Program-made: the position numbers and the translations under genes
The notes under the pieces: generated by a model
The model's database searches: none
Told to the model about the DNA's origin: nothing
Seen by the model: only the letters and a program-made list of their open reading frames with translations
Shown here: positions 1,216-64,000 of the stretch, piece after piece
Layout: every line of letters starts with the position of its first letter
How positions within the stretch are numbered: the stretch's first letter is position 1
DNA from: Octopus vulgaris
Taxonomy: Eukaryota
Reading direction: 5' to 3'
Assembly: GCA_951406725.2 (NCBI GenBank)
Contig: OX597832.1
Span: 21,452,001 to 21,516,000, forward strand
Length of the DNA stretch: 64,000 nt

Positions 1216-2310
1216 GGCAGCAAGCTGGAAGTAATCGTTAGCGCTCTGGACGAAATACTTAGCAGTGTTTCGTCTGGCTTTACGTTCTGAGTTCAAATTT
1301 CTCCGAGGTCAACTTTGCTTTTCATCTTTTCGGGGTCGATGAATTAAGTACCAGTTGCGTACGGGTTTCGATCTAATCGACAGAACCCCTCCAGAAAAAT
1401 TTCGGACCTTGTGCCCAGGGTAGATATACTAACTAAGAATATATGTGATAGAGTTAGCATGTTGGACATGATGCTTAGCGGTGTTTCGCCCGTCTTTACG
1501 TTTTGAGTTTAAATTGCTCCGAGATCGACTTTGCCTTTCATCCTTTCGGGGTCGCTAAATTAAGTACCAGTTGCGTACTGGTTTCGATCTAATCGACTGG
1601 ACCCCTCCACAAAAATTTCTGGCCTTGTGCCTAGAGTATAAAAGAATACATGTGACATATTTATCCTTATAATTACTGTAATGTATGAAGTGGCGAGCTG
1701 ACAGAGTCGTTAGCACGCTGGATGAAATGCTTAGCAGTATTTCGTCTGCCGCTACGCTCTGAGTTCAAATTTCTGCCGAGGTCGACTTTGCCTTTCCTTT
1801 CATCCTTTCGGGGTCGATTAAATAAGTACTAGTTACGCACTGGAGTCGATATAATCGACTTAATCCGTTTGTCTGTCTGTGTTTGGCCCCTTGTGGGTAG
1901 TAAAGAAATAGGTATTTCGCCCGTCTTTACGTTCTGAGTTCAAATTTCTCCGAGGTCGACTTTGCCTTTTATCATTTCGGGGTCGATAAAACGAGTACCA
2001 GTTAGACACTGGGGTCAATGTAGTCGACTAGCCCCTTGCCCCAAATTTCAGGTGTTGTACCTTTAATAGAAAGGATTGTTACTGTAATGTATATGATGAC
2101 GAGTTGACAGAACTGTTAGCACGCCGGGCACATTAGTGAACGGCATTTCGTCCGTCTTTATATTCTGAGTTCAAATTCTCCCGATGTCGACTTTGCATTT
2201 TATTATTTCAGGGTCGATAAAACGAGTACCAGTTGAATACTGGGGTCGGTGTAATCCACTTACGACGTCCCTCGAAATTTCTGGCCTCCTACCAAGATTC
2301 GAAACTATTA
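1216..2310 (+). mobile_element. Tandem cluster of about 5 family-A tRNA-derived SINE copies
   Basis: Repeated head ggcggcgagctggcag, B-box gagttcaaat and central gtcgactttgcctttcatcctttcggggtcgat..aagtaccag (resembles the Meta/MESC SINE domain, from memory). Several copies are preceded by tactgtaatgtat. Confidence 0.9.
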
Positions 2311-2332
2311 TTACTATAATGTATCTTTTCTA

Positions 2333-2686
2333 CTCTAGAAATTTAGGAGGACGAGGCCAGTCGATTAGATCAACCTCAGTACGCACCTGGTACTTAATTT
2401 ATCGACCCTGAAAGGATGAAAGGCAAAGTCGACCTTGGTGCAATTTGAACTCAGAACGCAAAGACAGACGAAATGCCGCTAAGCATTTCGCACGGCGTGC
2501 TAGCGTTTCTGCCAGCTCACCGCCGTAAATTCGTATTCTTTACTACTGTAGGAACAAGGCCCGAAATTTTGGGGGAGGGGACCAATCGATTAAATCGACC
2601 TCAGTACGCACCTGGTACTTAATTTATCGACCGCAAAATGATAAAAGGCGAAATCGACTTCGGCGGAATTTGAACTCAGAACGTAT
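2333..2686 (-). mobile_element. Two family-A SINE copies in opposite orientation to the upstream cluster
   Basis: gaaaggatgaaaggcaaagtcgacc...gaactcagaacg...ctgccagctcaccgcc. Confidence 0.85.
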
Positions 2687-2902
2687 CGTGAAGAGGCTCT
2701 CCTGGCCTTCAGTTGTTGCTGGTTTTTCTTTTATTTTTTTTTCTCACGTGTGACAACACTAATCTACCTGTCTCTTTAAATCCCATCAACACTATGGACT
2801 TTATTTCTACGTTTTCTTAGAGTGTACCTCTCTAAATCTGGACGGTTATGGGATCTTCACATCCCGATGTTTCAATAATTCTATTATATTTTTATAGTTA
2901 AA

Positions 2903-3297
2903 CTAGCAGTATCGCCCGGCGTTGCTCGGGTTTGTAAGGGAAATAACTATATAAGAATTTTTAGAGATGTAAAGTATAATAGCCATCTCAATATGGTTAA
3001 CCACAAAGGGGGGGGGTACTGTAGCTTTTTACGTTCTGAGATTTAATAATAAACTTTTAGAGAGTTACTTCCCTTATATATGCGAAAAATGCATTAAAAA
3101 TGGGAAAAATTGATGGTAAATTATTTTTAAAATCGTAGACTCATCGTAGTCGCGCGCTAATACCCAAAAGGACTCGATATGAATCACGACTATAAGATAC
3201 CCGGTTTTGGTTAAACTGCACCGCAAAATGTGGGAGTAGTTAGGAATCTAAATCGTAGGAGACAGACAGCATACAACCTTACTTTTATATATAAAGA
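2903..3297 (-). mobile_element. Non-autonomous Helitron
   Basis: Minus strand starts a|TCtttatatataaaag and ends with the hairpin cccgagcaacgccggg followed by CTAG|t; A|T target and no TSD, the canonical Helitron termini. Confidence 0.85.
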
Positions 3298-3991
3298 TAT
3301 AATAAATTGTATTTTAAACATTTTGAAAATATTTTGTGTATTGCAGAAGTAAAACTAATTTATTACACATGAATTTCAACACTGGAATCTTATGTGGACT
3401 CCCACGTGACATATGAACCCTGGTTGAGAAACACTGTTGTAGAAGAACGCAGTCCTGAAATTAATGACTCCAATGATGATAATGAAGTTAATGACTCTTC
3501 TATTTTTCCTAAGAGTCAAAGCCATACACCTTATTCGGGGCTCCCTCATCGGCCCTCTGCCTTTTTCGTTTTTCTTTTTGTACAATATTGAACACTATAT
3601 ATGGTGGTTGCTCCTTCTTCACAGATGATTGCCATGCCCTTCAGCTTCCTCGCTGTCAATAGCATTTCTGACTTTCCGTCCATGACCTCTCATCTGATTC
3701 TGCATTCGTGTTGCTGATCTGCTTCGTTTGGAGCATAGGTGACAGACGAAAGTTGTAACTTATTGTCCGCTTCCATCCTCATTTACATTTCCAGTGTCAT
3801 AGGACAATCAGCTGAGGTCACCATAAAGAGACATCAGTAGGTCATTGGGTTATAATGATAAACGTCTGGACAACACGAGTACCAATCTCTGAGTCCCCGT
3901 GGTTAGTACCGAGTGAGAGGCCGAAGCGAGATGACCAGTAATCACGTGAAATCACAGGTTTTATATCAGATTTTCCATCTCTTAGAAGGAT

Positions 3992-4220
3992 GTAGAGGTG
4001 CGTGGCTTAGTGGTTCGGGTGTTGGACTCATGATCGTAAGAATATAGTTTCGATCTCTAGACCGATCGACAAGTTGTGTTCTTGATTTCACTTCACTTCA
4101 CGTTGCTCCAGTCCACTCAGCTGTCAAAAAAGTGATCCTGCGACGGACCGGCAGCAGAAAAACCGGAAAACCGGCCCTATGAATATGTATGACTCGGGAA
4201 GGACTTTTATCCTTTATTCT
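3992..4220 (+). mobile_element. Family-C tRNA-derived SINE with 15-bp TSD
   Basis: A-box tggcttagtgg and B-box-like gtttcgatc; TSD atctcttagaaggat (3977-3991) / atctcctagaaggat (4221-4235). Confidence 0.8.
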
Positions 4221-61480: not shown

Positions 61481-61551
61481 ATGCTCACACAAGACCCGCA
61501 TTAGACTCCTCACTCGTATTACTTACATAGCCTTACCTGACATATTGGGTC

Positions 61552-61866
61552 TTAATTTATCGATCCCGAAAGGATGAAAGGCAAAGTCGACCTCGGCGGA
61601 ATTTGAACTCACAACGTAACGGCAGACGAAATACCTATTTCTTTACTGCCCACAAGGGGCTACACACAGAGGGGACAAACAAGGGCAGACAAACGGATTA
61701 AGTCGATTATATCGACCCTAGTGCGTAACTGGTACTTATTTAATCGATTCCGAAAAGATGAAAGGCAAAGTCGACCTCGGCGGAATTTGAACTCAGAACG
61801 TAAAGACAGACGAAATACTTCTAAGCATTTCGCCCGGCGTGCTAACGATTCTGCCAGCTCGCCGCC
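61552..61866 (-). mobile_element. Family-A SINE dimer (second body truncated)
   Basis: Junction gaaatacc|tatttc at 61628-61641. Confidence 0.88.
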
Positions 61867-62290
61867 CTCATAGAACATAGAAAGACCTTCGAACATAGAA
61901 AGACCTTCGATATATGCAAATGCCTGCTGCATTTTCTTAATGGTAAAATGACATGACTCAGGTTCTACTGCCTCTTCTTCTTTATTTTGCTGCCTGTGAA
62001 GCCCTATCAAATCCTCGTTCGTCAGGGGCTGCTTGTCTTTTTCAAATAAATTTGTGAAATTCTCCTCCTCCAAATCCATTTCCAGTTCTTTGCTCGTAGT
62101 CACCAACGATTTGTTGATGGCACCATTATCAAACCCCTTAAAATCATACACGAATTGCGGGCATAGCTTCTTCCATACACCATTCACAGCCGTGCTCTGT
62201 ACATCATTCCATGCCGCTACTATGTTCTGTACAGCCTTGTAGATATCGTATCTCTTCCAAAAGTCACGAAATGTGATGGACTCATTAAGA
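61867..62290 (-). pseudogene. pogo/Tigger transposase C-terminal fragment
   Basis: FRDFWKRYDIYKAVQNIVAAWNDV..NGVWKKLCPQFVYDFKGF..LTNEDL, typical of Tigger/TIGD1-like proteins. Confidence 0.8.
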
Positions 62291-62636
62291 TCAATTACAG
62301 GGAAAAACTATTACAATTTCACCAATCCAACTACGCAGTGAACGGTACCAAATCGAATCTTCTCAAAAGTTCACTAACCAAAACGGCGGCATAACATGGT
62401 GATAGTTCACCGAAGATTATGAGGATTACCAGAGGCTTAAACAAGAAATGAAGGTGATTTTTTACTTAATCCTGCAAAGCCTTCATTGGATCTAATCCAG
62501 AACGTATTTTCAAAAAGTATCAAAGTTTAGAAATTAAAAAAAAAAGAAAATTAATTTTGAAGTCCAAAAATATTAAGTTGCTAAATATTTATGCTTACAA
62601 CATACTAATTTGTCTGTGATTTTATCTAATAATTTC

Positions 62637-62790
62637 TCTATCTGTAAAGATTAGAATGTGTGTGTGTGCTTATCTGTCTGTCTGTGTGTGTCAGTCTGTG
62701 AGAATCCCTAAAACTCGAGAACTACTCGACCGATTTCATTCAAATTTTATACATGCCTTACTTAGGGTCCATGTAGTGTCATAAGCCAAT
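62637..62790 (+). mobile_element. Helitron-like 5' fragment
   Basis: tctatctgtaaag start, (TG)/(TCTG) tract, accgatttcattcaaatttt motif. Confidence 0.5.
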
Positions 62791-63387
62791 AAGAGCAATC
62801 TCTTATCTCCTACACTATTTCAGGATTACGTGTCAAAGTAGAAAACAATAACATCTCTCTATTGCAATGTGAGATACTTTCCCTTCAACCTCACACACAC
62901 ACACACACACACACACACACACACACACACACACACACACACACACACACATATATATATATATATATATATATATATATATATATACATACATACATAT
63001 TCCTCATAAACACTCTACCACTGCTACTAATAACTGTTGGTAACCCTTTCAGACCTGCCTTACATCTCAACCGGAATCTCGAAAACATTGTCCTCTTTAC
63101 ATCTCATTCTTATTTCATTACCACGGCAGGCAAATAGAACTTACTTCTCGTGACGGGACAATGGAAGATGGTAATAACAGACATTAACCACATGCTACCT
63201 TGTCCAGTAAAATATATTGTCATCCACTTCACCTCTAGCCTAGCGAACGGAGAGTTCAAACGACCCCACACCACTGATATCTTTCTTCATCCTTCTAGCT
63301 GTCTGCTTTCCTATTAATACGACAAAATTCATGTCCTGGCAAACAACATTCGGAACGCAATTCACAATCACTGTCTCCTTTTCTCAT

Positions 63388-64000
63388 ACCTATTTCTTTA
63401 CTACCCACAAGGGGCTAAACACAGAGAGGACAAACAAGGACAGAAAAAGGGATTAAGTCGATTATATCGACCCCAGTGCGTAACTGGTACTTATTTAATC
63501 GACCCCTAAAGGATGAAAGTTAAAGTCGACCTCGGCGGAATTTGAACTCAGAACGTAGCGGCAGACGAAATACCTATTTCTTTATTACCCACAAGGGGCT
63601 AAACACAGAGAGGACAAACAAGGACAGACAAACATTTTGAGTCCATTATATCGATCCCAGTGCGTAACTGGTACTTATTTAATCGACCCCTAAAGGATGA
63701 AAAGTAAAATCGACCTCGGCGGAATTTGAACTCAGAACGTAGCGGCAGACGAAATACCTATTTCTTTATTACCCACAAGGGGCTAAACACAGAGAGGACA
63801 AACAAGGACAGACAAACATTTTGAGTCCATTATATCGATCCCAGTGCGTAACTGGTACTTATTTAATCGACCCCTAAAGGATGAAAAGTAAAATCGACCT
63901 CGGCGGAATTTGAACTCAGAACGTAGCGGCAGACGAAATACCTATTTCTTTATTACCCACAAGGGGCTAAACACAGAGAGGACAAGCAAGGACAGACAAA
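63388..64000 (-). repeat. SINE-derived tandem array, 184-bp unit, at least 3.3 copies, running off the window
   Basis: acctatttcttta at 63388, 63572, 63756 and 63940. Confidence 0.95.

Follow-up and report, generated by a model that had tools for sequence, protein, structure and literature searches.

Tandem SINE arrays of Octopus vulgaris joined at one fixed base, possibly through insertion of new copies into older SINE heads

A 64,000-nucleotide (nt) stretch of the Octopus vulgaris genome (contig OX597832.1, positions 21,452,001 to 21,516,000; referred to here as the window) contains tandem arrays of a short interspersed element (SINE), in which the complete 3' tail of one unit is joined to the same internal base, base 48, of the next. 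The junction is real and recurrent, and it is not an artefact. An exact junction at five independent loci had been reported in an earlier interpretation made from the letters alone (the sequence-only reading), and the count bore this out. The motif GAAATAGGTATT matched seven times at five loci, against 0.02 matches expected from 100 shuffles. The matches were located on the + strand at 1905 and 41795, the latter with the sequence GGTATTCC, and on the − strand at 28672, 61630, 63569, 63753 and 63937. With modest confidence, we favour the view that the arrays arise by insertion: the reverse transcriptase of a partner long interspersed element (LINE) would place a new SINE copy within the head of an older one, which may belong to the same SINE or to its sister. 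The insertion would likely be guided by read-through RNA carrying the junction, with its 5' end sealed by homology.

A BLAST survey distinguished two sister SINE types, which have head and body in common over about 165 nt and differ in their tails. Type 1 is 231 nt long and terminates with GTAGTAAAGAAATA; type 2 terminates with a C-rich stretch and a tail of ATT type. Bases are numbered on the type-1 monomer at 49584..49814 (+ strand), whose clean 14-bp target duplication (49570-49583 and 49815-49828) sets the 3' end at GAAATA. The element shows the usual features of a SINE, being short, interspersed and non-coding, with 28 matches in 64 kb and more than 78,000 and more than 202,000 matching contigs in two public runs. 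An acceptor-like stem and A- and B-box-like motifs are present in the head. The A-box-like motif (49594..49605, positions 11-22, + strand) occurs in the head only and is not repeated in arrays, and the B-box-like motif (49657..49668, positions 74-85, + strand) lies inside the repeated unit. The proposal of a tRNA head goes back to these two motifs, matched by eye to the box consensus; neither ARAGORN nor Rfam matched a tRNA. Between the boxes lies a hairpin with the loop TAGC (49614..49643, positions 31-60, + strand). Its 3' arm opens with the restart base, G48 (49631). The sequence-only reading was thus right to place the restart beside the hairpin loop, and its outline of the hairpin had to be corrected to a 13-bp stem and a 4-nt loop. 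Hairpin pairs were standard in 182 of 211 cells over 17 heads and in 77 of 78 cells in the six type-1-tailed heads. As the restart lies between the boxes and the 184-nt unit has the B box without the A box, an array would read as a single promoter followed by bodies.

The array unit is 184 bp long, and every inner unit keeps its complete 3' end and restarts at base 48. Among the 12 type-1 tails in the window, seven were followed by the base-48 restart, three by GGT (35524, 28493 and 63390) and one by TAT (49815), and one was 3 nt short (41981). GGT was the next triplet at three of the four complete ends outside junctions; it makes up 1% of positions, and the probability of at least three in four is 4e-6. 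It had been claimed that monomers defined by target duplications end in GAAATA and are often followed by GGT. The first part stood at 49584 and the second at 35524, while 28493 and 63390 proved to be the ends of arrays and not of monomers. The second type-1 monomer (35294..35523, + strand) is flanked by a 15-bp target duplication (35273-35287 and 35524-35538). Both copies of it begin with GGTA; the site was therefore similar to the restart even before the insertion. Six extra bases (35288-35293) stand between the duplication and the SINE start; they duplicate positions 6-11 of the head and may reflect slippage as cDNA synthesis ended.

The monomer was compared with four public runs. The raw-read run X22 gave 16 matching reads only; X12 and X13 are contigs whose RNA origin is only guessed, so that they show the presence of the junction and not its transcription. 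Fifteen joints were listed across the runs and 371 further joints were counted, among which restarts rarer than those listed are possible. Among the joints listed, tail to base 48 was found in 13 contigs of X13, 6 of X12 and 2 of X14. A scatter of junctions, which the sequence-only reading had considered as the contrary outcome, was not seen as far as tested, as the same joint recurred in three runs. Four rows of X13 with letters between tail and restart showed the same base-48 joint with point changes. In X13, 324 contigs broke directly 5' of base 48, and their loose letters were those of the tail (agreement 0.84). Free copies starting at base 48 therefore look rare, and none was found in the window. 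Another 140 X13 contigs broke at the tail end, with the restart as consensus (agreement 0.5, very roughly a third of contigs). A second joint connects the tail to base 15 (49814 to 49598, inside the A-box-like motif), in 8 contigs of X14, the run with another species label, and in 1 of X13, again among the joints listed. The base-15 joint repeats AGAAA of the tail itself. No match to junction, tail or body was obtained in collections of viral contigs, metagenome contigs and genome contigs.

Array A (1691..2078, + strand) consists of a type-2-like head, a type-1 body up to 1910, the junction at 1905-1918, and a type-2 body with its tail at 1911-2078, all within a 14-bp outer target duplication (1673-1686 and 2079-2092). 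The dimer at about 1690-2075, said to join bodies with different tails, was thus confirmed as a type-1 body within a type-2-like copy. The head carries the type-2 alleles T19 and A34. It has T3 and A13 in common with the type-2 sister copy at 2097..2310 (+ strand), and A13 occurs in no other aligned head. The last unit groups with the same copy (support 96/92), which belongs to its subfamily and is flanked by the same target duplication sequence. The first unit is type 1 at all eight diagnostic sites over positions 48-165. Differences from the type-1 consensus amounted to 7 of 45 in the head against 5 of 168 in the body (Fisher p 0.004). In the simplest reading of these alleles, array A would be a type-2 copy into which a type-1 body was inserted at base 48. 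Consecutive type-2 copies at 1170-2330 are separated by one 14-bp sequence present four times (near 1200, 1673, 2079 and 2312), a pattern that we interpret as repeated insertion at one regenerated site together with local duplication. Two more type-2 copies lie in the opposite orientation at 2337-2688.

Array B (28494..28908, − strand) has a head and two type-1 units of different subfamilies, with the junction at 28670-28683. Its target duplication of about 23 bp is GGT-rich, and its head bears the double change T43G/G48C (28861-28866). Array C (41569..41981, + strand) also has a head and two type-1 units, with the junction at 41795-41808. These units share only G56T and C61T, both within the first 14 of the 181 nt after the restart, as a target duplication would give. 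Three nucleotides short of a full tail, array C runs into sequence (41982-42040) like the tail of a third repeat family described below. In array D (61551..61866, − strand), the head is type-2-like through position 64 and is followed by a type-1 body; the junction is at 61628-61641 and the second unit (61551-61635) is only about 85 nt long. No target duplication was found at arrays C and D.

Array D lies in a decayed reading frame, which we take to be Tigger-like and which had no Pfam match. The frame seems to resume within a few bases of the cut second unit. Directly upstream of the array, an 18-bp tandem duplication (61867-61910) contains GGTCTTTC, which is like the restart at seven of eight bases. 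Elsewhere, a type-2-like copy at 27354-27473 is missing about 15 nt from the 5' arm and loop of the hairpin, with the sequence continuing exactly from GGTATTTC; the gap might be due to short GG homology.

Array E (63391..64000, − strand) comprises at least four type-1 units, with junctions at 63567-80, 63751-64 and 63935-48, and runs off the window, so that its head lies outside. The description of arrays as one head followed by bodies of about 184 bp was accurate in unit length and inexact for array D, with its short second unit. Two units of array E have the same sequence, the last shows 12 differences over 184 positions, the partial unit has 1 difference in 58 nt, and all share the two variants G101A and C115A. 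These units suggest that local duplication probably enlarged array E, or that part of it is an artefact of assembly.

Unequal exchange or slippage, the kind of tandem DNA duplication that has been invoked for SINE-derived satellites, would account for the identical and nearly identical units of array E, and arrays of this sort are known from squamates and from a clam (PMC10702118, PMC11481361, as far as the available text of both goes). Within-array distances elsewhere (B 0.071, C 0.108, D 0.085) fell in the range found between loci (mean 0.097, 60 pairs). The homology at the joint is only 3-5 nt, the same base is used at five unlinked loci, and array A crosses families. As a general account, duplication at the DNA level is very unlikely; it probably holds only for the growth of array E, where an assembly error is also possible.

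Type-1 copies fall into at least two groups according to positions 64, 71, 125 and 128. In terms of these groups, X and Y, the unit order is Y-X in array B, X-Y in array D, X followed by type 2 in array A, and a third variant followed by X in array C. The tree of bodies was mostly unresolved, good support being limited to 2 of its 21 inner branches. Fixed left and right arms as in Alu were not seen, and the pairings of units differ among arrays A, B, C and D. Descent of all dimers from a single dimeric master, which the sequence-only reading had weighed, does not fit neighbouring units of different subfamilies in either order, as far as tested. Nor does repeated copying of one circular RNA, the alternative offered there, since neighbouring units in arrays A-D differ at subfamily-diagnostic sites; it went unsupported at four of the five loci.

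A broader version of the idea is that the junction arose once or a few times at source loci, that multimers were transcribed and inserted whole without preference for SINE heads, and that units were mixed later by template switching or gene conversion. The exactness of the junction and its high frequency would then have a simple account, as would array B with its outer target duplication. Shared variants point the same way: the two variants common to the units of array E, and G119A in both units of array D, the first of which is itself a chimera. Against this, the four arrays with complete heads show four unit combinations, one of them across families, and in array A both the head and the last unit would need to have been converted from the same rare subfamily. 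We consider this explanation quite unlikely, although it is partly contained in the insertion model, which also uses read-through RNA.

In the insertion model, the bottom strand of an older head would be nicked before G48, and the free end would prime copying from GAAATA. Read-through RNA from existing arrays would end in GGUAUU..., pair with the primer and thereby steer insertion to GGTA sites, with SINE heads as the best of them. The 3' end of the new cDNA would anneal to the homologous upstream head, leaving no second head. This annealing would re-join the A box to the B box and regenerate the target. Long arrays such as E would be extended afterwards by local duplication. For R2, annealing of the template 3' end and annealing of the cDNA 3' end upstream both give seamless joints (PMC11371274, in the part available). 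The window contains 290 GGTA sites, and the probability that five of nine independent ends fall in heads by motif alone was 1.6e-4 for GGTA and 0.07 for GGTAT. A short endonuclease motif is too common, and RNA carrying the junction therefore likely helps in targeting. The sister type 2 sits in ATT-type sites matching its own tail, despite having the same tail stem-loop; these sites and the base-15 joint would both fit priming guided by pairing. The earlier proposal of self-targeted insertion thus gained support from the chimeric locus 1691-2078, the GGTA duplication copies at 35294 and the mixed subfamilies, and needs amendment at arrays B and D. Nicking of a DNA cruciform was set aside by reasoning only, because G-T pairs would be mismatches on the bottom strand.

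Several observations weigh against insertion into heads. The evidence base is five loci. The target of the 49584 monomer does not start with GGT. The shared-variant test in array C (p 0.006-0.014) was made post hoc, and one of its two variants, C61T, is common. No joint leaving two heads was present among the 15 listed, so that 5' annealing would have to be used nearly always. The head of array B has C48 and that of array D has A48, yet the unit after each junction begins with G48; and in array D the second unit is type 1 at positions 61 and 63 while the head is type-2-like. Simple target duplication therefore fails at these two arrays, and either overwriting from RNA or later conversion is needed. 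An incoming RNA with the junction could overwrite the first bases and so ease the C48 and A48 mismatches. Finally, the tail and bases 50-55 are exact reverse complements (chance about 0.002), a palindrome that the insertion model would explain only as a one-time origin.

The palindrome is better accounted for by the main rival, in which the joining occurs in RNA. SINE RNA would be cut just 3' of the hairpin loop, the GAAAUA tail of the same or another molecule would replace the 5' arm in pairing with UAUUUC and be ligated to G48, or the reverse transcriptase would jump there, and the chimeric or circular RNA would be inserted. The restart at the exact border of loop and 3' arm agrees with such a cut, and array B, where the head goes with unit 1, and the mixed subfamilies also fit. 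The available part of PMC8857657 documents both template jumping and pre-ligation for non-LTR enzymes. The type-2 head of array A, the shared variants of array C and the GGT(A) at empty sites are left unexplained. No Rfam ribozyme was found at E values up to 10, and neither strand of array E contained an exact hammerhead core. At −3.6 kcal/mol, against −16.2 kcal/mol for the native arm, the tail duplex is weak; the absence of free base-48 copies from the window and the tail sequence of most loose ends in X13 are also unfavourable, and the subfamily differences exclude a pure rolling circle for A-D. Joining at the RNA level is, in our judgement, rather unlikely.

The double change T43G/G48C of the array B head was frequent in the runs of organism A and nearly absent in the run of organism E. 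The frequencies of the two changes were matched in three runs (17.5/15.1%, 9.8/8.3% and 0.2/0.4%), and these unphased frequencies suggest that they are linked. The change converts the T-G closing pair into G-C, keeping the hairpin and removing the GG start. A bolder extension of insertion into heads, possible but doubtful, is that the 184-nt unit behaves as a homing element. Junction RNA would guide LINE-made cDNA to the same base of its own and sister RNA polymerase III promoters, restoring both promoter and target; T43G/G48C would be an escape variant, and another lineage would use the base-15 site.

Both SINE types have in common a 3' stem-loop with the loop CTTGT (49790..49802, + strand) and compensatory changes in its stem. 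When pairs were counted by anchoring on the loop, pairs 2 and 3 from the loop were C-G in 12 of 12 and 9 of 12 type-1 copies and G-C in 4 of 7 and 6 of 7 type-2 copies; the copy at 2097, whose loop had no match, was left out. The stem-loop is likely a reverse-transcriptase recognition site, and its covariation points to the same or related LINE partners for both types, as far as sequence comparison can indicate. No LINE or reverse transcriptase domain was detected among 20 of the 205 listed frames of the window scanned with Pfam, which gave only a mariner transposase.

That transposase (56091-57115) is frameshifted and matched Pfam Transposase_1 with an E value of 2e-24. A unit of about 535 bp is present in three tandem copies at 12213-13648. 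The third interspersed repeat family is about 420 bp long with about ten copies, among them 16442-16866, 24291-24581, 42731-43123, 54749-54944 and 57189-57672, and is presumably a CORE-type SINE. The sequence is octopus-like in character, being microsatellite-rich with 36% GC.

If insertion into heads is correct, this SINE supplies its own safe landing site, and aim comes from the end of the RNA and not from the host or the enzyme alone. A testable path by which dispersed SINEs become satellites would follow; the squamate study cited above left that step open. Insertion into heads would also imply a LINE enzyme whose choice of site can be set by a few template nucleotides, a feature wanted for RNA-only gene insertion. 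Chimeric dimers would distort the repeat libraries and age estimates of this SINE family.

Nesting and tandem growth have precedents. Zepp of Chlorella is a LINE that nests in its own copies, and tandem insertions of Alu are known. Retrozymes and metazoan ribozyme-bearing circular RNAs form tandem units of 150-400 nt in fixed register; unlike retrozymes, the present arrays have no hammerhead or other Rfam ribozyme, and units within one array are of mixed origin. By resemblance, the octopus OK/OR1/OR2 and Twhix SINEs are the likely family context. A Deu or Nin central domain was rejected: by eye, the body is unlike the Lottia and Nucella Nin sequences (PMC4758252 supplement), and its motifs are absent from the files searched. 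Compared by eye with the first alignment rows of PMC4758252 only, MESC (Meta) gave a 9-nt match near the hairpin loop and was otherwise unlike. Octopus repeat surveys list tRNA-Core, tRNA-Deu and many unclassified SINEs and active Dong-R4, RTE, CR1 and L1-Tx1 LINEs, and their available text does not mention such arrays (PMC8967140, PMC13282606). In full-text literature we found no SINE with a fixed target in its own promoter; subscription papers, Repbase and supplements may hold one.

A candidate kind of LINE partner may be represented by Dong and EhLINE1, since the sister type sits in ATT repeats. According to the portions available, Dong has TAA targets (PMC3812793), EhLINE1/EhSINE1 has a GCATT nick with a 22-bp duplication (PMC1635306), and Dong-R4 is reported to be active in Octopus vulgaris (PMC13282606). 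In the octopus SINE, GCATT is found on the bottom strand at a distance of some bases from the proposed nick, and this EhLINE1 motif was not used. R2 and PRINT in 28S ribosomal DNA, as described in the available part of PMC11371274, are similar in that a 3' extension of the template anneals to the nicked site, the cDNA 3' end joins upstream and the target is multicopy. R2, however, is an autonomous element whose protein reads the site; here the element is a non-autonomous SINE, and its own family would serve as the multicopy target.

The double insertions of the Drosophila elements R1, jockey and P element (bioRxiv 10.1101/158386, in part) resemble the octopus arrays in that site preference and target duplication regenerate the site and tail-to-internal tandems result. 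In those tandems, host-DNA target is kept between units and truncation is variable; here the element's own head is the target and the restart is fixed. The TSD-(SINE)n-TSD (target site duplication) arrays of Scapharca broughtonii, as far as the available text of PMC11481361 describes them, are likewise mollusc arrays with one full head, head-truncated later units, an outer target duplication and some mixing of families. In them, tail truncation affects inner units too, leaving only the last one complete, whereas every inner unit here is complete to its last base; and arrays there make up about 3% of copies, against 7 of 12 tails here.

A further likeness in form is to the SINE-derived satellites (sSat) of squamates. 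In the available text of PMC10702118, the head-plus-repeated-body arrays are ascribed mainly to unequal recombination, and insertion at the same locus is only mentioned. As here, a SINE head leads, and tandem units begin inside the head; some have box B, body and LINE-derived region and measure 130-215 nt. Unlike here, no fixed target within the SINE, chimera across families or matching empty-site motif is mentioned in that text. An sSat has at least four middle monomers, homogenised within the locus. Arrays A-D are dimers of unlike units, and array E has at least four units and runs off the window. The octopus SINE is an element of an ordinary kind with an unusual, likely self-directed, formation of chains.

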